A stretch of 58,594 nt of DNA from a virus (taxonomy: Duplodnaviria; Caudoviricetes), in the IMG/VR virus record IMGVR_UViG_3300023174_000190, positions 1-58,594 of that record. One strand, given 5' to 3'. Both the position numbers and the translations under genes were made by a program. Below the pieces are notes generated by a model. The model was given only the letters and a program-made list of their open reading frames with translations, had not been told where the DNA came from and did not search any database. This document shows positions 9,828-19,180 of the stretch, piece by piece; position 1 is the stretch's first letter, and each line of letters begins with the position of its first letter.

Positions 9828-11039
9828 TTAACTCTGTTCTGTTACTTCAGCTGGAGCTGCTGGAGCAACTTCGACCTTAGCATCAATTTTGCTATACAGG
9901 TCAAGGAATGCAGTCTTGGATTCTGCATCAAAGCGGTTCACGCAATACTTGATCGCCTCGAGTTTATCACCGAAGATAGTGTACGCTTCTGCGATATGCA
10001 CCAGACGGCGAGTGGAAATCAATTCATCAATTGCACCTTCTTCGAAGGTCTTGCGAATGATATCAGCCCACTTGACTAGGTTGTCTGCAAACTCTTTGTC
10101 TGCAATACCAAGACTGTCGAACACTTTCATTAGAATGCGAGTCTCGACCTTAGTGTCTGCGTACTCTTGCTCGACGGTGATTGGGAACCGCTCTAGGAAT
10201 GCATCATCAAGAATCGTCGCTGCCATGTAGCGACCAGTTTCATCACCTTTACCTTTTGTGTTGGCAGTGGCGATCACATTGAAACCAGCAACTGGTTCGA
10301 CAAATTCACCAGTCTTTTTAACGAAGATACCTTTACCTTCAAGGACTGCTTGCAGACACATCAGTTTGTTGGAACCACGATCAATTTCATCAAGGATGAG
10401 AATCGCACCAGACTTCATAGCCTGCAGGACAGGACCATCAAACCAGCGAGTCTCGCCGTCAATCAAACGGAAGCCACCGATCAGATCATCTTCATCGGTC
10501 TCTGGAGAGATATTGACTCGCAAGCATTCGGTCCGAGTAGCAGCACAAGCCTGTTCGACCATCAATGTCTTACCGTTACCAGACAAGCCAGAAACGAAGA
10601 CTGGGTAGAACCGCTTCGAAGAAACAATTTTCTTCATATGGTCGAAGAACCCGAACGGAACGAACAGTGGATTCACTTTGGGCACAATTGCGCCGTCTTG
10701 AATCCGAGCGACGGTAGAAATTTTAACTGGTGCTTTTTGAGCCACTGGCATCACCGCTGGTGCATGTGGTTCATACACAACCACGGATTCTGGGACTGAA
10801 ACAACTTTAGGAGCTGGCATCGGCACAACGTTGGAGACACCAGCAAGGCTTACACCGTACTCTTCAAGCGGAAGACGGTAGGTGCCGCGATCGACCCGAT
10901 ACTCGTCGGATTTAACCCAGTTATTACGCGCCCAGCCTTCTTCGGCCATGGACACTAACTGCTGTCGGGTTACAACAGCACCGAAACGGCGAGCAGCTTC
11001 AGTAAGAAAAGCAACCTTGTCGTTTTTCGAAATGGTCAT
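9828..11039 (-). CDS. CobS/MoxR-like AAA+ ATPase
   Basis: GLSGNGKT (Walker A), ETDEDDLIGG, LILDEID (Walker B), ATANTKGKG, AFLERF and ISTRRL motifs. Confidence 0.92.
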   Translation of the reverse strand: MTISKNDKVAFLTEAARRFGAVVTRQQLVSMAEEGWARNNWVKSDEYRVDRGTYRLPLEEYGVSLAGVSNVVPMPAPKVVSVPESVVVYEPHAPAVMPVAQKAPVKISTVARIQDGAIVPKVNPLFVPFGFFDHMKKIVSSKRFYPVFVSGLSGNGKTLMVEQACAATRTECLRVNISPETDEDDLIGGFRLIDGETRWFDGPVLQAMKSGAILILDEIDRGSNKLMCLQAVLEGKGIFVKKTGEFVEPVAGFNVIATANTKGKGDETGRYMAATILDDAFLERFPITVEQEYADTKVETRILMKVFDSLGIADKEFADNLVKWADIIRKTFEEGAIDELISTRRLVHIAEAYTIFGDKLEAIKYCVNRFDAESKTAFLDLYSKIDAKVEVAPAAPAEVTEQS

Positions 11040-11084
11040 GATATAGAAACCTCAAAAAAATCAGAAAAATCAATCAACACAATC

Positions 11085-11113
11085 AGTCTACTCTGGTTCT
11101 GGTAGGCTGTCAA
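11085..11113 (-). promoter_or_regulatory. Sigma70-type promoter for the CobS-like gene
   Basis: TTGACA-17 nt-TAGACT; the -35 box overlaps the TGA stop of the upstream gene. Confidence 0.7.
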
Positions 11114-13299
11114 GCAATTTCCTCGATTACCTTGGAAAGCAACACTCGGTTGGTCAAGCGCCCACGGTTCATGGCTAGGAACGCTGTCTTGAGTTTGCGA
11201 GCAGAGACCACACCTTCACCCAGAATATCTTCCAATGAATCATCATCCGTATTCAAATCACTTCCACCAGGAATTAAAAAGTATTGATCATATCCGTAAT
11301 TGGAAACTTGATAAAACTTTTGTGTACGGAACACTTTCAATTCGGTATCAATTTTGAAAGAAGGGATTCCAAAACGTTGGGCTGCACTACTAAAAACACT
11401 TTTACTCTTACCAAGAATGTAGAATCCAATCAAATTACATCCAGTCTTTTCTTTAAGAATCTGGAGCAATGCAGGAGTAACGCCGTTAACTCCAACTTTG
11501 TAATTCCTTTTAGTATCTTCATCTTGAATATATGATGAATCATATCGAGTCGGTGCTCCAATTCGCTCTATCGTTCCATCTGGAGTTATTGCAGTATAAA
11601 GTGTACTAGAATCTTCACCGTCAGTAATAAACGAAACGTTTACGATTTCGGTACGGGTACGCTTGCGAAAATCATTAATAACCGACGGAGCAACTTTAAT
11701 TGTAGAGTTTAAAGGAGTACCACCTAATCGCATATCATGGGCAATATTCACATAGTGAAAACGCCGAGCATACGAATAAGTTCGACTATTCGTTGGATTG
11801 TAACACCGAACATAATTCAATAGGTCATTCGCGAATTTGCGATATGAAGCATTCTTCATACTGCTTGAAAGAATATTCAGAAGACTAAAGTTTTCATAAA
11901 AAGCCAATTCGCCTGCCATTTCGGAATGGCGATCTCCTTGCGACTCATGGATATACTGAGTGGTAAATGCATAAACATCAAAAGGAATATTCACTTTACG
12001 GCAAAATGTCGTAAGAGTAAGCAATTGCTCAATTGTTCCTTCAATGTTATCTGTCATTGAACCAGACCAATCTACGAAAATTACAATACCGTGATTCTTA
12101 CCAGCTGCAACAGAACCAATCTTGCGGAAGATATCGTCATTGAATTTGTAGGTATGCAGTTTGTTAGTATCTAACTTGCCGCTATCTGCAACTGTAATGC
12201 GACGATTCTCGGTTGCTTTTTTACGCATTTCAAATTCTTTTACAAGATAATTGATTGCGTTTTTATTGCGCTGCTCAAAAGCATTCAGAAGAGTATTGTC
12301 ATAACCGCCTTTGTCGGTATAATAGTCATTCTCAAAGAATTTATTCTGCAATTCTTTCCAATGAACAATGTAATTCTTTGCTTGGAACTTAGTTTGACTT
12401 GGAAGAACACCAATAGCAATTTTGCGATCTTCGACCAATTGGCTTAAAGACTTTGCTAGACTTTCATCGGTAAGAGACTTTACTGTTCCACGATAATCCG
12501 ACAATTCTTCATCATCCGAATCATCATATGAACTATTAGAGAATCCACTACTTGAATTTTCACCATCTGTTTCTGGTTCAAAATCTTCTGGATTCTGATC
12601 CTCTACATCACCCGATTCATCTGAGTAATCATCAAAATCATCTTCATCAAAACCGCCAAGGTCTTCCTCTTCATCAATGTCACCGCGTTGGCGCTGAGCA
12701 TCAGCATTTTGTTCAGCTTCTTGCTTACGCTGCTCTAATTCACCTTTGCAATAATCGTAAAGGCGAGTGGCAATGTCTTTCACTTCACCAAAAGTCTGTG
12801 CATTCTCAATTTCTTGAACAAATGCATTCTCTTCTGCATTATTGAATCGAACATTAGCAAAAGCACCAATCTTGAAATGCAAATTGATTCGATCAATCAG
12901 CAATAGTTTGTTTACGTCTTTGCCTTTAATCTCGAAAAAATCACGCTCGACAAATTGGCGATAACCTAGAGCAAAGGATTTGCGCAGACCTGGATAACGA
13001 TCTTTAATCATCCGTTCAATTCGGGCATCTTCAACAACGTTTAAGAATGTACCGAATTCTGCACCACCAGCCTTATGACATTCAATGTATTCGACTGGCG
13101 TATCAATTGCATGGCCAATCTCATGGCCATAAAGCAATTCTTGAATCTCTGGAGTAATGTCTTGCCACATTGGCAATGTGATCTTACGATTTTTAAGATC
13201 AAACGAAGCAGTCGGAACCTTGCGGTGCTCCACAATCAGATTCTCTGTTGCGAGCAATCGAACTAAGGTAGACTTGGTAAATTGTACGTTCTCAGTCAT
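11110..13299 (-). CDS. Metallopeptidase-like + vWA protein (CobT-like partner of the AAA+ ATPase)
   Basis: Start moved to MTENVQF. HEIGH (HExxH) and NVVEDARIE; acidic linker; vWA MIDAS motifs DWSGSM, GGTPL and ITDGE. Confidence 0.88.
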   Translation of the reverse strand: MTENVQFTKSTLVRLLATENLIVEHRKVPTASFDLKNRKITLPMWQDITPEIQELLYGHEIGHAIDTPVEYIECHKAGGAEFGTFLNVVEDARIERMIKDRYPGLRKSFALGYRQFVERDFFEIKGKDVNKLLLIDRINLHFKIGAFANVRFNNAEENAFVQEIENAQTFGEVKDIATRLYDYCKGELEQRKQEAEQNADAQRQRGDIDEEEDLGGFDEDDFDDYSDESGDVEDQNPEDFEPETDGENSSSGFSNSSYDDSDDEELSDYRGTVKSLTDESLAKSLSQLVEDRKIAIGVLPSQTKFQAKNYIVHWKELQNKFFENDYYTDKGGYDNTLLNAFEQRNKNAINYLVKEFEMRKKATENRRITVADSGKLDTNKLHTYKFNDDIFRKIGSVAAGKNHGIVIFVDWSGSMTDNIEGTIEQLLTLTTFCRKVNIPFDVYAFTTQYIHESQGDRHSEMAGELAFYENFSLLNILSSSMKNASYRKFANDLLNYVRCYNPTNSRTYSYARRFHYVNIAHDMRLGGTPLNSTIKVAPSVINDFRKRTRTEIVNVSFITDGEDSSTLYTAITPDGTIERIGAPTRYDSSYIQDEDTKRNYKVGVNGVTPALLQILKEKTGCNLIGFYILGKSKSVFSSAAQRFGIPSFKIDTELKVFRTQKFYQVSNYGYDQYFLIPGGSDLNTDDDSLEDILGEGVVSARKLKTAFLAMNRGRLTNRVLLSKVIEEIA

Positions 13300-13322
13300 A
13301 TGAATTTCTCCCTTACCCACCC

Positions 13323-13351
13323 ATAGTAGCAAACCACCAACGCTATGTCAA
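13323..13351 (-). promoter_or_regulatory. Sigma70-type promoter for the peptidase-vWA gene
   Basis: TTGACA-17 nt-TACTAT; the -35 box overlaps the TGA stop of the upstream gene. Confidence 0.75.
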
Positions 13352-13953
13352 GCAGCAACTGCTTCTTCCTCGACCTGTTGCGGCTGGACAACAGAGAGAA
13401 TCTTCGGACGGCTGATCACCGTCTGAGGAGCACCACGATACTCGCGGTGGGTCTTCACCGTCGCAACCACTTGAGCCGTCTGACCCTTCGAAGGGAACTC
13501 AGCAGTGCCGCTATAAACGACAGCGTTACCGTTCTCATCCTCACAGATGCGGAGGAGGGACATTCCCGAATCGTACCAGTGATAGCGAGCCCGCTCAACT
13601 TCAATTTCTGCCTTGACCGTCAAGGTCATGGTTACTTTTTTACCTGGCTGACCGACGTGGGTCATAGTAGCAATCTTAGCAACACGTTCAGCTTCGAACT
13701 TTGCTTTACGCTCTGCTTGGGTTGCAATAGAATTCCGAAGAGCAATCACCTGCTTTTCGGTCAGCTTGCCATACTTGTCAAGAGCAGTCAACAGGCTTTG
13801 GTAGAACGAATTCTTACCAGCATTAGCCCACAGGAAATCGAACATCTCCTGCGCGTCGGGATATGTACGATTGAACGTAGTCCGAGCATTCATTACGATG
13901 TTACGCTTAATACCAGCCTCATACGCGGACGGATTGTGAATCTGTGAATGCAT
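13348..13953 (-). CDS. Hypothetical early protein with a probable C-terminal OB-fold
   Basis: Start moved to MHSQIHNP (SD-like AAGGGAG upstream). YGKLTEKQ helical part, then HVGQPGKKV...DENGNAVVY...ATVKTHREYRGAPQTVISRPK. Confidence 0.7.
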   Translation of the reverse strand: MHSQIHNPSAYEAGIKRNIVMNARTTFNRTYPDAQEMFDFLWANAGKNSFYQSLLTALDKYGKLTEKQVIALRNSIATQAERKAKFEAERVAKIATMTHVGQPGKKVTMTLTVKAEIEVERARYHWYDSGMSLLRICEDENGNAVVYSGTAEFPSKGQTAQVVATVKTHREYRGAPQTVISRPKILSVVQPQQVEEEAVAA

Positions 13954-13990
13954 TTTCGAACTCCCTTGTTTCTGTCTCACCACAAGATCA

Positions 13991-14018
13991 ATTCTACTCT
14001 GATCACCACGAAAGTCAA
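13991..14018 (-). promoter_or_regulatory. Sigma70-type early promoter
   Basis: TTGACT-16 nt-TAGAAT. Confidence 0.65.
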
Positions 14019-14025
14019 GGCTTTT

Positions 14026-14053
14026 CTTGGTGTTGCACAAAAACAACACCAAG
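14026..14053. repeat. Perfect 10-bp inverted repeat upstream of the early promoter
   Basis: CTTGGTGTTG-cacaaaaa-CAACACCAAG, plus a third TGTTG at 14056-14060. Confidence 0.75.
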
Positions 14054-14068
14054 TTTGTTGTTTTTTTG

Positions 14069-14767
14069 CTACTTTATTGCAATAAATGCTGTGAATCCAT
14101 GATTTTGCCAGAATGTATCCATGCGTTTAAAGTCAAATCCAGCACCAGCGCAAATACTCAATAATTCATTTCGAGTATTTAATTTCATCATATGTCGCAA
14201 TTCTCGCTCTTTATTTAGAATGTCATCTGATGTAAAATGCTCTCTTTTGTAATCATAATATGTAAATGTGCGAATATCTTGGATCTTTGAGCATTCGGAA
14301 ATAGTTTTCTCTGCAAAAATGAATGCACCACCATGACGCAATCCACTATAGATTTGTTTTACAATATCGCGTCTTTGATTTTCTGGAATGAATTGTAAAG
14401 TAAAGATAGAAGTAATCAATGTTGAATCTTGAAATTTAAAATCGCGAACATCACCACGATGATATTTCAAATGAAATCCAGATTCAGCATATAGTTCTTC
14501 ATCTTTGTCGAAGCCTGGAAAGAAGTCTTCTTCAATTTCAATTCCAAAGTATTTTGCGTTTGGTGCAAATGCAATGTTTTGCTCATGCATTGCTTTAAGT
14601 AGTTTACCAGTAGAGCAACCAACATCAACAACTGATGCATCATTCTCTACGAAATACTCTGAGTATTTCAATACGTCATTCCAAAGATTTGTGTATCCGC
14701 GAATAGAATGCTCAATGTGTGCATCGAAACCTTCTTCTCTTTGTGCGAATGTAAATTTTTGTGCCAT
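14069..14767 (-). CDS. cmoA: CmoA-like carboxy-S-adenosylmethionine synthase / class I methyltransferase fold
   Basis: FDAHIEHSIRGY, DVGCSTG, IFTLQFI, GGAFIFAEK and FWQNHGFTAFIAIK parallel the CmoA motifs FPDMIQRSVPGY, DLGCSLG, NFTLQFL, SEK and WFQCFNF. Confidence 0.85.
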   Translation of the reverse strand: MAQKFTFAQREEGFDAHIEHSIRGYTNLWNDVLKYSEYFVENDASVVDVGCSTGKLLKAMHEQNIAFAPNAKYFGIEIEEDFFPGFDKDEELYAESGFHLKYHRGDVRDFKFQDSTLITSIFTLQFIPENQRRDIVKQIYSGLRHGGAFIFAEKTISECSKIQDIRTFTYYDYKREHFTSDDILNKERELRHMMKLNTRNELLSICAGAGFDFKRMDTFWQNHGFTAFIAIK

Positions 14768-14768
14768 T

Positions 14769-16004
14769 TTATAATTCCTTGTACGGTTTCAATATTTTCT
14801 CATATACATTGGATGCAAGTGCAGCCATCATTTTGGGCGCAACCATTCTACCAATTCGTTCAGCCTTTTTATCGAAGTTACCAGTAAGAATAAAATCGTC
14901 AGGCATACCCATTATAATCTTTAATTCTTTGATTGTAAACTTCCGATTCTTTTCGTAGTGGAAAACACCAGACACAGACTTTTGATTACCGCGTTGTGTA
15001 ATCGTTGGAGATGGCAAATCTGGGCATGGGCGAATCATATTAAACAATGATCGTTTAGGATTGATAGAGATAAACTCTTTGTCACTAGGTTTCATATGTC
15101 TTGGCGGATTGAATGGAAGCATTTCAATCCATTTCTTTTGAAAACCATTCTGAACATAGTCATACAATTCTTTCTCTTCTTCAGGATCATTCACTACATC
15201 ACCAATTGCTGATTTAAGACTAATGTGCTTAGGAGTAGTCTTATCTGGACAAGTCATGGTATTGATGTTTAGAAAATTGATTCCAACTTTTTCTGCAACA
15301 TCAGATCGAACACAAACAAAAAACAAACGTTCTCTAGTTTGTGGAACACCATAGTCTGCAGCACTCAATACATGATATGTTGTAACATATCCAGGTTCAA
15401 TATTTTCAAATGCGTTTTTGAACTCAATCAGTTTCTTTGCAGCTTCACCCATTGTGATGCCTTTCACGTTCTCTGCAATGATAACTTTTGGCTTAATCTC
15501 TTTTGCAATTCGAATGTATTCAAAAAACAAGTCTTCAATTGCTTCTACAACTTTACCATCAGAATAGACTTTGACACCAGAACTTACTGTAGACTCAGTA
15601 ACATGTACAACTTCATCTAATTCAAAATCAAAATAGCTTTCTGCAAAATGTTTCTCTGAACCTTTCCAATTCTTTTCACGCTTACCTGCAACAGAGAATG
15701 CAGAGCACGGAGGCGAACCATCAAGAATATCTAACTCGCCTGGTTCTAAATTTGCAACTTCAAGAAAAGTTTTACCAGTCAATGTTTTAATGTCACCAGG
15801 AATAATCTTTGTGTCTGGAAAATTCATTGAATAAGTTTTGATTGCTTCTTCAACGAATTCATTGATTGCAATAACTTTACCACCAGCCAATCGATATCCA
15901 GTCGAACTTCCACCACCACCAGCAAAGGTACTAACTACCGTAAATAAATTTCTGTCTGATGATGCTTTTACATCAGCAATCGTATAGTGTTCGTATTTCG
16001 CCAT
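14769..16004 (-). CDS. C5-cytosine DNA methyltransferase homologue with variant motif X (probable carboxymethyltransferase)
   Basis: Start moved to MAKYEHY. Motif I FAGGGG, IV GSPPCSAFS, VI ENV and VIII QTRERLF are present; motif X reads GRMV instead of GN(A/S)V. Confidence 0.92.
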   Translation of the reverse strand: MAKYEHYTIADVKASSDRNLFTVVSTFAGGGGSSTGYRLAGGKVIAINEFVEEAIKTYSMNFPDTKIIPGDIKTLTGKTFLEVANLEPGELDILDGSPPCSAFSVAGKREKNWKGSEKHFAESYFDFELDEVVHVTESTVSSGVKVYSDGKVVEAIEDLFFEYIRIAKEIKPKVIIAENVKGITMGEAAKKLIEFKNAFENIEPGYVTTYHVLSAADYGVPQTRERLFFVCVRSDVAEKVGINFLNINTMTCPDKTTPKHISLKSAIGDVVNDPEEEKELYDYVQNGFQKKWIEMLPFNPPRHMKPSDKEFISINPKRSLFNMIRPCPDLPSPTITQRGNQKSVSGVFHYEKNRKFTIKELKIIMGMPDDFILTGNFDKKAERIGRMVAPKMMAALASNVYEKILKPYKEL

Positions 16005-16788
16005 AATTTTTCCAGTCCCTATAAACGTCAAGCATACGCTTGCGGTTTTTAATATTGATATCCTTACATTCTAACAGAACTTCGAATGCTTTGTCAATCC
16101 CTGCACCAAGCTGAAGGTTAATATGCGGTTTCGGTTTTCCTATCTTTTGGAACTCCGGGAACGCTTCTACAACATGATGTTTCTGGTAAGGTTTATTTAG
16201 CTGATACCAATCGTACTGCATGAAAAAATCTTTAATGGTACTATCTAAGTAAGGCGCAATGAAATCTTTTTTATATTTTAAAGAAAGGTATTGTTGTTGC
16301 ATGTAAGCAACAGGATTACTATTGCCGAAGTATTCAATACGAAACTGATCAAATAATTCTTTTGGTTCTTTGTAATGAATACATGCTTTCTTTGAAACAC
16401 CATAGTGACCGTCTGCTGCCCAGCCAGAGATAACTTCTTTCTCTTCTATTTTTGGATAGACATACAAGAATGGAAACGTACACTCATAATGTGTTTTCTT
16501 AATGCAAGCAAACTTAGTTCTTAAAGTATGAAAGTCTTCAATTAAATTATTAATTGGAACTTCAACTTTAGTGCATCTCCAACCCATTATGTTTGATGCA
16601 TCAATAGCTTTCTGAGAATCATATGTTGGATTGTTTTCTAAACAAAATGTGTATGCATGAACTTTTTTACCAAGTCTATGTGCAGTAAATGCTACAGATA
16701 AAGAATCAACTCCGCCAGAGAGTAGAACAGCAACTTCATTCTCTCTGGAAGAATCTTTTATTTTATTCTCTAGTAGTTTATCAATCAT
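15973..16788 (-). CDS. Asparagine-synthetase-like ATP-dependent amide ligase (synthetase domain only)
   Basis: PP-loop VLLSGGVDS, ISGWAADGHYG (cf. SGEGADELFG) and APYLD; no N-terminal glutaminase domain. Confidence 0.85.
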   Translation of the reverse strand: MIDKLLENKIKDSSRENEVAVLLSGGVDSLSVAFTAHRLGKKVHAYTFCLENNPTYDSQKAIDASNIMGWRCTKVEVPINNLIEDFHTLRTKFACIKKTHYECTFPFLYVYPKIEEKEVISGWAADGHYGVSKKACIHYKEPKELFDQFRIEYFGNSNPVAYMQQQYLSLKYKKDFIAPYLDSTIKDFFMQYDWYQLNKPYQKHHVVEAFPEFQKIGKPKPHINLQLGAGIDKAFEVLLECKDINIKNRKRMLDVYRDWKNYGEIRTLYDC

Positions 16789-17230
16789 GAAGCAATCTTA
16801 CTGAAATAATGCAACGCATAAGAAATTCCAATCCAGACTGATCGCGATAGTCTTCAGCATAAAAGACTTCTTTAATACCAGAAGCATATATCATTTTAGC
16901 ACAGTCCATGCATGGCGCACAAGTGACAAACATTGTAGCGCCTTCACCAGATTCATTGGATCGCGCAAGTTTACCAATTGCATTTAGTTCTGCATGAAGA
17001 ACTTCTGGTTTAGTTTTTAACATAATACGAATAAAACCTTGCGCGTCAACTTGTTGTATCTCATCTTCGCAATTATTATCCCAACCAGCAGGCATACCAT
17101 TGTAACCAATAGAAATGATTCTATCATCTTTTACAATGATTGCTCCAACTTTCTTTCTTTTTGCACTACTCAACTCTGCAAAGAGTTTTGCAGTTTTCAT
17201 GTACGAACCAAGATACTTTTCTTTAATCAT
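16781..17230 (-). CDS. cd: dCMP deaminase
   Basis: Start moved to MIKEKYL. KVGAIIVKD..IISIGYNG, HAELNAI and PCMDC zinc motifs. Confidence 0.93.
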   Translation of the reverse strand: MIKEKYLGSYMKTAKLFAELSSAKRKKVGAIIVKDDRIISIGYNGMPAGWDNNCEDEIQQVDAQGFIRIMLKTKPEVLHAELNAIGKLARSNESGEGATMFVTCAPCMDCAKMIYASGIKEVFYAEDYRDQSGLEFLMRCIISVRLLHD

Positions 17231-17471
17231 CAATAAACTCTTTTTGAAACAGGCGACGTTCTTGTATAGTTGGGATTTCAAATGTCTTTCTAGGATTAGC
17301 ACACATAACGCATTTTGGATTTCCACAACTCATTGGAGATTGTTTTGCTAACTTATGTGGTTGCTTAACTGGAACATGATTTTCTTTTGCAATTGCAACT
17401 TGTCGATTGATATGATTCTCTTTTTGTTGCAAACGGCGAGAGTGTTTGATTTTATGATCTTCATTACTCAT
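17223..17471 (-). CDS. Small basic hypothetical protein with a CxxxxCxxC motif
   Basis: SCGNPKCVMCANPRK; coupled to neighbours by overlapping start/stop codons. Confidence 0.65.
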   Translation of the reverse strand: MSNEDHKIKHSRRLQQKENHINRQVAIAKENHVPVKQPHKLAKQSPMSCGNPKCVMCANPRKTFEIPTIQERRLFQKEFIDD

Positions 17472-19180
17472 TTTGTTATCCTCGAAAAATTGTTGACCTT
17501 TTCGAACTTTATTACATTCATGAACTTATCTTGTAGCATATCTCCTTTATGTGATATTACGAATAGATTAGAACCTTCAAGCATTCCAAGAATCTTCATC
17601 AGATCTTCGGTTCCATTAGTATCTAGTGAAGAATCAAATATCTCATCAAGAATTAATATGTTTGTGCTTGCAGAATTTTTTAATTTAGCAACTGCTCTCC
17701 ACGTTAACATTAATGCCATATCGATTCGCTGTTTCTCGCCTTCACTAAATGATGCATAAGTAAAATCATCACGATGCCTGGATTTGATTGTCTCTTTGAA
17801 CGATTCATCCAAATTGAAATTCACAAAGAAGTCTAATGATGCAAGATATTTGTTTACTAACTTATTAATGATTGGAATGTATTGTCGAATGATTTTCGTT
17901 TTGATTCCAGTATCTTTAAGTAAAGTAGTCGCAACTTCATAGTATGCACGTTCTTCTGTGATTGATTTTATCTCTGTTTCAATTTGTAGTAAATTATCAT
18001 TAAGCCCAGACAGTTTCGTATTCTCTGTTTGTAAGTCACTCTTGTTTTCTTTGAGTCTTTCGATTTCCTTTTCTAATGTTTTGCTATATCTTTGATTGAC
18101 AATAATCTCACTCTGCTCTGATGTAAGATTTGAATTCACATCTTGAATCTGATCATCAATCAACTCAATATCTTTCTGTCGATTGAATAATGTATTGATT
18201 TCATTTTCAATCTCACCAATAGCTTTTTCAACTTCATTTAGTTTTTTGTTTCTCTCTTCTACAATATGTAGTTTGTGGTCTTCTGCAATTCCTTGCTTGC
18301 ATGTTGGACAATCATGATTATCATTATAAAAAGAAATATCTGTAGAAACTTTGTTGACAGTCTTTTGTAGATTGCTTCGTATACCAGTTAGTTTAATTAT
18401 TCTATCTGTGACTTTCTTTTTATCGGAAATCTTATCTCGTAATGTATTCAATTCAGTTTCGTATGAAGTACATTTGATTTGGCTTTCAGCAATCATATTA
18501 ATTGTGTTAGCTAAATCTTGTTCTTTTAGAGAAACTTGAGTAGCAGTATTCTTTTTGATGTTGTCGATCAATTGAATTTGATATTGAATCTGTTCTTTCT
18601 TCAAGTCTGATTGATACTTTGCTTGATGATGACGTTCTTTCAATAAAGCAAACTTATCTTTTAGAACTCCATTCATTCGCGAGAATATCTGAATGTCCAA
18701 CAAGTCTTCAATGATTGAGCGCCTATCGGATGCAGACAATTGCATGAACGGAACGAATGATGCAGATCCCAACAACACAATCTGAGTAAATGATTTGTAG
18801 TTAAGTTTAAGAATAAACTTTTCCAAATACTCTTGATAGTCTTTTGCTGCAGCGTCTTGATTGATTAGTTCGCCATTGCTATAAATTTCAAACACGTTCG
18901 GCTTGATACCACGAACAACTTTGAAAGACTTATTACCAATGACGAATTCAATCTCGACAACGCAATCTTTTTGATTGATTGCGTTTACAAGCTGACCCTT
19001 GTTTATGTTTCGAAATGATTTGCCAAACAATACGAAACACAATGCATCAAGCATTGTAGATTTACCAGAACCATTTGCACCTACAATTAGTGTAGTACCA
19101 TTCTCTGATAAATTAATTTCTGTATTGAAGTTGCCAGTCGAAAGAAAGTTTTTGAATCTAAGTTTATTAAAAGTAATCAT
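17468..19180 (-). CDS. gp46: Recombination endonuclease ATPase subunit (Rad50/SbcC-like)
   Basis: GANGSGKS, zinc hook CPTC, signature FSEGEKQRID, LILDEIFD and ISH motifs. Confidence 0.97.
   Translation of the reverse strand: MITFNKLRFKNFLSTGNFNTEINLSENGTTLIVGANGSGKSTMLDALCFVLFGKSFRNINKGQLVNAINQKDCVVEIEFVIGNKSFKVVRGIKPNVFEIYSNGELINQDAAAKDYQEYLEKFILKLNYKSFTQIVLLGSASFVPFMQLSASDRRSIIEDLLDIQIFSRMNGVLKDKFALLKERHHQAKYQSDLKKEQIQYQIQLIDNIKKNTATQVSLKEQDLANTINMIAESQIKCTSYETELNTLRDKISDKKKVTDRIIKLTGIRSNLQKTVNKVSTDISFYNDNHDCPTCKQGIAEDHKLHIVEERNKKLNEVEKAIGEIENEINTLFNRQKDIELIDDQIQDVNSNLTSEQSEIIVNQRYSKTLEKEIERLKENKSDLQTENTKLSGLNDNLLQIETEIKSITEERAYYEVATTLLKDTGIKTKIIRQYIPIINKLVNKYLASLDFFVNFNLDESFKETIKSRHRDDFTYASFSEGEKQRIDMALMLTWRAVAKLKNSASTNILILDEIFDSSLDTNGTEDLMKILGMLEGSNLFVISHKGDMLQDKFMNVIKFEKVNNFSRITK

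Follow-up and report, generated by a model that had tools for sequence, protein, structure and literature searches.

A probable CmoX-type DNA cytosine C5-carboxymethyltransferase, with arginine at motif X, encoded by an uncultured T4-like phage

We analyzed a window of 58,594 bases, which is the entire IMG/VR virus record IMGVR_UViG_3300023174_000190 (estimated completeness 32%, GC content 36.9%), and focused on a gene of the DNA cytosine C5-methyltransferase family, here called cmoX, and its neighbors cmoA and cmoY. Nearly all long open reading frames (ORFs) of the window lie on the minus strand, and PHROG matches to DNA polymerase, major head protein, portal, tail sheath, large terminase, helicase and tail fibres identify it as a fragment of a T4-like myovirus. 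A megablast search with positions 13000-18000 found no near-identical DNA in a collection of named phages; at the protein level the best named relatives of the window CmoX are encoded by S-CRM01 (46.8% identity), S-B43 (45%) and Melnitz (40%). The reference throughout is SpCmoX, the DNA cytosine C5-carboxymethyltransferase of Synechococcus phage S-B43 (PDB 8YF3; Yang et al., Nat Commun, December 2025, PMC12783734), which takes its carboxymethyl group from carboxy-S-adenosylmethionine (Cx-SAM). The features on which the argument depends are the following.

15973..16788, minus strand: cmoY, an ATP-dependent amide ligase homologue of 271 amino acids (aa), 49% identical to S-B43 CmoY (E 6e-89)
14769..16031, minus strand: cmoX, a DNA cytosine C5-carboxymethyltransferase homologue, 420 aa from TTG 16031 (Pfam PF00145, E 3.4e-54)
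15705..15719, minus strand: GSPPC, residues 105-109 of CmoX, with the catalytic Cys109, equivalent of SpCmoX Cys98
14826..14861, minus strand: motif X stretch of CmoX, ERIGRMVAPKMM, residues 391-402
14847..14849, minus strand: AGA codon of Arg395 (Arg386 from the ATG start), aligned with SpCmoX R350 and predicted to contact the Cx-SAM carboxylate
14069..14767, minus strand: cmoA, a carboxy-SAM synthase homologue of 232 aa, 45% identical to S-B43 CmoA over its full length (E 2e-70)

Given that relatives of the window CmoX align only from about residue 10-13 on, the true start of the gene is probably ATG 16004 (M10), which would yield a protein of 411 aa. The translation scores 149.4 bits against NCBIfam model TIGR00675, above the cut-off of 100.65 bits; its C-terminal part includes ...KKAERIGRMVAPKMM... 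and its end reads ...GNFDKKAERIGRMVAPKMMAALASNVYEKILKPYKEL. The motif numbers I, IV, VI, VIII and X follow the usage of the C5-methyltransferase literature. The three genes form a cassette, with cmoY directly upstream of cmoX and cmoA beginning one base past the cmoX stop codon, directly downstream. The window CmoY has the same 271-aa length as S-B43 CmoY and aligns with it end to end, carries an SGGVDS PP-loop within a Pfam Asn_synthase match at residues 15-126, and has no glutaminase domain. For the window CmoA the best NCBIfam model is TIGR00740 CmoA, matched over its full length (14-239 of 239) at 92.6 bits.

To place motif X, we compared the window protein with classical and solved C5-methyltransferases. 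The first-pass annotation had read an arginine where ordinary enzymes have asparagine, and the minus-strand codon at 14847-14849 is indeed AGA, encoding Arg395; the range it gave for the motif, 14835-14860, includes this codon and covers most of the full ERIGRMVAPKMM stretch. Its statement that the remaining methyltransferase motifs are intact was likewise upheld by an alignment of 54 sequences, in which FAGGGGS (G38, G40), GSPPC (C109), ENV (187-189) and Q231/R233/R235 are present and conserved. The arginine also stands where that annotation had put it relative to known enzymes: phmmer alignments against PDB chains set it opposite the asparagine of kqfGNSV in M.HhaI (N304, counted from the printed chain coordinates) and of GNAV in M.HaeIII, and a MAFFT alignment sets it opposite the asparagine of QFGNSV in Dcm of E. 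coli K-12 (residue 436; NC_000913.3). For M.MpeI (4dkj) the phmmer alignment spans only residues 174-265, short of N374, and the equivalence of N374 is taken from a statement in PMC12783734 rather than from a computed alignment. Among 109 related viral ORFs, a count in which the window and S-CRM01 appear again as re-fetched copies (L043 and L044, respectively), the residue is encoded by five different arginine codons (AGA 54, CGT 34, CGC 13, CGA 4 and AGG 4), which argues that it is not a chance substitution.

Searching all PDB chains with phmmer, we found that the best match of the window CmoX is 8yf3_A, the 372-aa SpCmoX (E 4.5e-102, residues 16-415), in which ERVGRMVPPLMM pairs with ERIGRMVAPKMM of the window and Arg350 lies opposite the window arginine. 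BLASTP gives 48% identity to the S-B43 protein over 400 positions (E 1e-119), and in this alignment F36, E58, F59, D80 and C109 of the window are all identical to their SpCmoX counterparts, the cofactor contacts F25, E47, F48, D69 and the nucleophile C98. The 1.9 A structure of SpCmoX has Arg350 in place of HhaI Asn304 and in direct contact with the carboxymethyl group of the cofactor (PMC12783734). The suggestion that the window arginine binds the cofactor carboxylate, made in the first-pass annotation from the letters alone, matches this crystal structure; it is right and already in print, and the window gene is an uncharacterised member of the known CmoX family. The agreement speaks for the method and adds little new biology.

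The main text of the same study describes the pathway in which SpCmoX acts. SpCmoX makes 5-carboxymethylcytosine (5cxmC) from Cx-SAM; the phage CmoA supplies Cx-SAM, the host CmoA can substitute for it in E. coli, and a delta-cmoA strain loses 5-carboxymethyl-deoxycytidine (5cxmdC); CmoY joins glycine to 5cxmC, and native phage DNA carries the resulting glycine amide, 5gcxmC, at GC motifs, a modification that blocks restriction, with HhaI in vitro (PMC12783734). Both this chemistry and the arginine-carboxylate contact were demonstrated for the S-B43 homologues only (PMC12783734). What the window itself provides is the residue alignment, the conserved cofactor contacts and the three-gene cassette. 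Collectively, we consider it very probable that the product of the window gene, in a T4-like phage, is a CmoX-type DNA cytosine C5-carboxymethyltransferase, with its cofactor use, amine and sequence specificity assigned by analogy with S-B43.

By that analogy, the neighboring CmoA would make carboxy-SAM from S-adenosylmethionine (SAM) and prephenate, as CmoA does. Cys109 of CmoX would then attack C6 of cytosine and the carboxymethyl group of Cx-SAM would be moved to C5, with Arg395, at the position of the motif-X asparagine of ordinary C5 methyltransferases, predicted to pair with the extra carboxylate of the cofactor. The adjoining CmoY would adenylate the new carboxyl and ligate an amine to it, probably glycine, so that the end product would be 5-glycylcarboxymethylcytosine, probably at GpC sites. 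GpC cytosines of the window phage are accordingly predicted to bear a carboxymethyl-amide group; the window shows no avoidance of GpC (2,316 sites, observed/expected 1.17).

We then asked how far the arginine and the cassette travel together in other sequences. A library of 1.84 billion representative proteins gave 18,582 matches at E<=1e-3, and among the best 150 of these the motif-X column could be read in 118 (Arg 91, Asn 18, Leu 4, Lys 2, Tyr 1, Met 1 and Asp 1), the other 32 being fragments or unaligned at motif X. A scan with the window protein retrieved 39 loci of close viral relatives, 29 with the C-terminus on the contig, six cut before motif X and four that are distant matches not recovered by tblastn. 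All 29 of those with a C-terminus have G-R at motif X in the pattern ER[ILVC]GRMV[AP]P, and in each of them CmoX is immediately followed by CmoA and immediately preceded by a CmoY match, the latter partial where the contig ends. In a pooled set of viral and named-phage loci (131 rows, of which 107 are Arg-type, 10 are Leu-type, 9 are cut and 5 lack a CmoX-like ORF), a match to the CmoA model accompanies 88 of the 107 Arg-type loci and a CmoY match 69 of 107. Many of the counted contigs are near-copies; two scans both gave L018, and L034 is the same contig as L082.

A sharper contrast came from cellular genomes, where an alignment of the Asn/Lys variants retrieved 80 bacterial and archaeal loci. 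The residue at motif X and the number of loci with a CmoA-model match were as follows.

Arg: 16/16
Asn: 0/55
Met: 0/4
Leu: 0/1
Asp: 0/1
Motif X not visible: 0/3

The association of arginine with CmoA across these 80 loci has a Fisher p of 3e-16, a value that ignores relatedness. Ten of the 16 CmoA-like ORFs, the eight weakest matches and two intermediate ones, were scanned against NCBIfam, and TIGR00740 CmoA was the best match for all ten. This independent contrast between Arg-type and Asn-type enzymes in cellular genomes is an addition of the present analysis, and the two loci inspected look like prophages: L148:8834-12881 (Hymenobacter) and L154:8306-18909 (Verrucosispora) hold an Arg-type CmoX with CmoA, and because ParB-like, large terminase and head protease genes adjoin them we assigned both to prophages and rejected, for these two, a cellular restriction-modification-like system.

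The proposal of the first-pass annotation that arginine at motif X could serve as a mining marker co-occurring with cmoA therefore stands for the genome loci (16/16 Arg against 0/55 Asn) and for most viral ones (88/107), with the reservation that some Arg-type loci have no nearby cmoA. Such use is itself already published: SPPC together with R350 was used to mine IMG/VR, UniProtKB and MGnify, yielding 5,615 candidate CmoX proteins whose contigs hold 4,257 CmoA, 2,251 ligases and 1,660 ParB-domain proteins (PMC12783734). The window CmoX is probably among these candidates. Natural lysine variants, the GK side of the co-occurrence count proposed in the first-pass annotation, are two of the 118 aligned representatives (P0049 and P0053); P0053 has no relative in the viral contigs and only two in metagenome contigs, 47-50% identical, both Arg-type with an adjacent CmoA. 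From the Asn variants, P0008 gave one weak viral locus and P0027 none.

Several observations weigh against assigning the window gene to the CmoX pathway. The protein is known from its sequence alone, shares only 48% identity with SpCmoX and is longer by about 17 residues in the stretch from motif IV to ENV. No CmoA is seen at 19 of the 107 Arg-type viral loci; in 17 of these, less than 5 kb of contig remains on one side, but L061 and L079 each keep at least 6 kb of flank on either side. Five whole records lacking a nearby CmoA, only 6-14% complete, were searched with TIGR00740 and gave no match. The window CmoA falls under the TIGR00740 equivalog cut-off (92.6 vs 193.3 bits), as do all the scanned CmoA-like ORFs of the bacterial loci (43.8-103.5 bits); the phage CmoA clade is divergent from bacterial CmoA. 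In addition, the counted loci are not phylogenetically independent, and the viral loci scored with the CmoA, CmoY and CmoX profiles are the ones from which these profiles had been made. Finally, the R350N mutant of SpCmoX is inactive and does not switch to SAM (PMC12783734).

As a separate observation, a subgroup of Arg-type methylases (mostly ERIGRMVAPLM), at L061, L062-L065, L075, L077, L079-L081 and L114, has neither CmoA nor CmoY in flanking sequence of up to 10 kb. Arg-type methylases without a nearby CmoA may rely on host Cx-SAM or encode cmoA elsewhere, the former being possible because host CmoA suffices in E. coli (PMC12783734).

The R350N result bears most directly on how much of the cofactor choice the arginine explains. 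The first-pass annotation had presented the window enzyme as a natural version of the Asn-to-Lys gain of function and expected an R-to-N revertant to switch to SAM. The parallel itself is sound, in that Yang et al. likewise compare Arg350 of SpCmoX to the engineered M.MpeI N374K, but a single-residue switch is too simple and the predicted reversion is contradicted in the homologue: wild-type SpCmoX uses Cx-SAM only, and R350N uses neither SAM nor Cx-SAM (PMC12783734). Because the mutant is inactive rather than switched, arginine is necessary but may not be the sole determinant. It is nearly an even bet, in our estimation, that the arginine is required as one part of a co-adapted cofactor pocket and that motif X alone does not set cofactor choice. 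The dead R350N enzyme fits such a pocket, as do the variety of residues in non-Arg relatives from the clade around the window CmoX (Leu, Asn, Lys, Met and Tyr, with no single alternative) and the differences in flanking residues, G-R-M-V in the window against G-N-[AS]-V in ordinary enzymes. Pulling the other way, a single substitution at the homologous position was enough for Cx-SAM use in M.MpeI (N374K) and in M.CviPI variants (PMC13288465), and across the 80 genome loci the motif-X residue tracks the presence of CmoA perfectly.

A different question is whether the final base is the one found in S-B43. CmoX could make 5cxmC as proposed while the window CmoY attaches an amine other than glycine, an outcome that we regard as unlikely. 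According to Yang et al., the ligases fall into several clusters that differ in their active-site residues and may use other amines (PMC12783734), and the window CmoY is only 49% identical to SpCmoY; nevertheless, its identical length of 271 aa, its end-to-end alignment and its lack of a glutaminase domain favor the glycine ligase, and in the published ligase network, drawn at about 30% identity, the largest cluster is the one that holds SpCmoY (PMC12783734). It is very improbable that the window gene encodes an ordinary SAM-dependent 5-methylcytosine methyltransferase beside cmoA and cmoY genes that have a different role, for example in modifying RNA or small molecules, as would suit the plain Pfam and NCBIfam label (C5 DNA methylase / dcm superfamily) and the sub-threshold CmoA score, given that the 48%-identical SpCmoX uses Cx-SAM only (PMC12783734) with all of its cofactor contacts conserved in the window, and that a CmoA neighbor is found at 0/55 Asn-type vs 16/16 Arg-type loci.

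We also examined the relatives that carry leucine at motif X. The methylase of the Methylophilales phage Melnitz and nine viral contigs related to representative P0005 share this leucine. Model scans of these ten Leu-type viral and phage loci found CmoA in 0/10 and CmoY in 0/10, and a search of the whole 141.5-kb Melnitz genome found no CmoA or CmoY. Instead, the ORF overlapping the 3' end of the Melnitz methylase is a Tet_JBP dioxygenase (PF12851, 43 bits, cut-off 34.9), and a Tet_JBP homologue occupies the same place in all ten Leu loci (L002:4010-6194, Melnitz; L047-L055), compared with one of the 107 Arg-type viral loci (L088) and none of the 80 genome loci. Besides CmoX and CmoA, L088:16001-17347 has, some 5 kb downstream, a TET-like ORF that scores 168 bits, and two cytosine modification routes may coexist in this one phage.

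Both trees that we built, a quick one of 71 rows and a careful one of 33 rows, group the window CmoX with SpCmoX and S-CRM01 in a supported clade (96/85). The Leu enzymes fall into a single clade (94/86), with two Arg rows as its sister group, and Asn/Lys/Met enzymes make up another clade (100/99), from the base of which Arg rows branch. A well-supported clade of 25 rows (100/98) contains all of these groups, and the rest of its rows are Arg-type. With the root set on chosen Arg rows, this pattern suggests repeated switching at the motif-X position, possibly from an Arg ancestor. That the residue is an evolutionary toggle, flipped several times within one phage methyltransferase clade, is a tentative idea that we think more likely wrong than right. 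Were it true, the inactivity of R350N would be explained, and Arg-to-Leu rather than Arg-to-Asn would be predicted to turn CmoX into a methyltransferase; the Leu/TET clade suggests that Arg-to-Leu is the more informative mutation. Were arginine ancestral, the TET-linked GpC methyltransferases would descend from carboxymethyltransferases, having returned to SAM by way of leucine. The main text of PMC12783734 makes no mention of TET or Leu, and a literature search linking these terms gave nothing further; the Leu-bearing, TET-linked sister clade is a second addition made here.

The related loci also revealed rearranged forms of the cassette, which are a further addition. Tandem pairs of CmoX paralogues occur at L058, L059, L060, L067, L120, L121, L127, L131 and L132 (for example L131:1226-3560), both copies having GSPPC and a G-R motif X and CmoA following the pair; the two copies may differ in sequence specificity. 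What appear to be single frames, with an N-terminal half like CmoY and a C-terminal half like an Arg-type CmoX, occur in P0010 (681 aa, with residues 24-264 matching CmoY at E 1e-22 and residues 427-679 matching CmoX), L135:9017-11128 and L136:8990-11815, the last of which may extend into CmoA. Motif X of these apparent fusions reads ER[IL]CRMVPP, with Cys preceding the arginine.

Around the cassette in the window lie further minus-strand genes.

16781..17326, minus strand: a dCMP deaminase homologue (Pfam PF00383, E 1.1e-22), directly upstream of cmoY
13348-14052, minus strand: a 234-aa ORF just downstream of cmoA whose only matches are function-unknown PHROGs (phrog_27218, E 1e-21), with none in Pfam
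9828-13332, minus strand: a pair of neighboring ORFs (403 aa and 740 aa) downstream of the cassette

Judged from their translations alone, the 403-aa and 740-aa ORFs resemble an AAA-type ATPase and a large protein with an acidic linker. The dCMP deaminase stands beside cmoY only in the closest relatives (L004-L007, L025, L034, L037 and L038) and is counted as a neighbor rather than as part of the cassette.

Compared with known systems, the window enzyme shares its fold family and catalytic motifs with M.HhaI, M.HaeIII and Dcm, and their motif-X positions align; M.HhaI (N304) and Dcm (N436) carry asparagine where the window has arginine, the identity to Dcm is only about 23%, and they have no CmoA neighbor (0/55 Asn-type loci have one), whereas the window CmoX adjoins cmoA. 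The Melnitz methylase is closer, being 40% identical and a member of the same 25-row clade, yet it has leucine for arginine in motif X (ARIGLMVAPLQ). Its genes run in the order DNA polymerase, methylase, TET, P-loop kinase-like gene, an arrangement that agrees with clade II of the phage C5-methyltransferase (C5-MT)/TET modules of Burke et al. (PNAS 2021, PMC8256090), whose methylases are reported to make 5-methylcytosine at GpC in E. coli, and GpC-type specificity is on record for both the CmoX (PMC12783734) and the C5-MT/TET (PMC8256090) families. M.MpeI N374K and the M.CviPI variants resemble the window enzyme in having a positively charged residue instead of the motif-X asparagine, and they use Cx-SAM to form 5cxmC (PMC13288465; PMC12783734); they are, however, laboratory Asn-to-Lys mutants of SAM enzymes, whereas the window has a natural arginine in a family whose SpCmoX refuses SAM (PMC12783734). 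The nearest counterpart is S-B43 itself. SpCmoX and the window CmoX have in common full-length homology, the SPPC catalytic motif, arginine at the R350 position and the other Cx-SAM contacts, and differ in the additional residues (about 17) that the window protein carries between motif IV and the ENV motif. Both phages have a T4-like myovirus background and a cassette with cmoA and a 271-aa cmoY, although the gene order is cmoY-cmoX-cmoA in the window and cmoA-cmoY-cmoX in S-B43. With the window, the DNA hypermodification pathway described in 2025 gains another complete cmoY-cmoX-cmoA cassette, this one carried by an uncultured T4-like phage.

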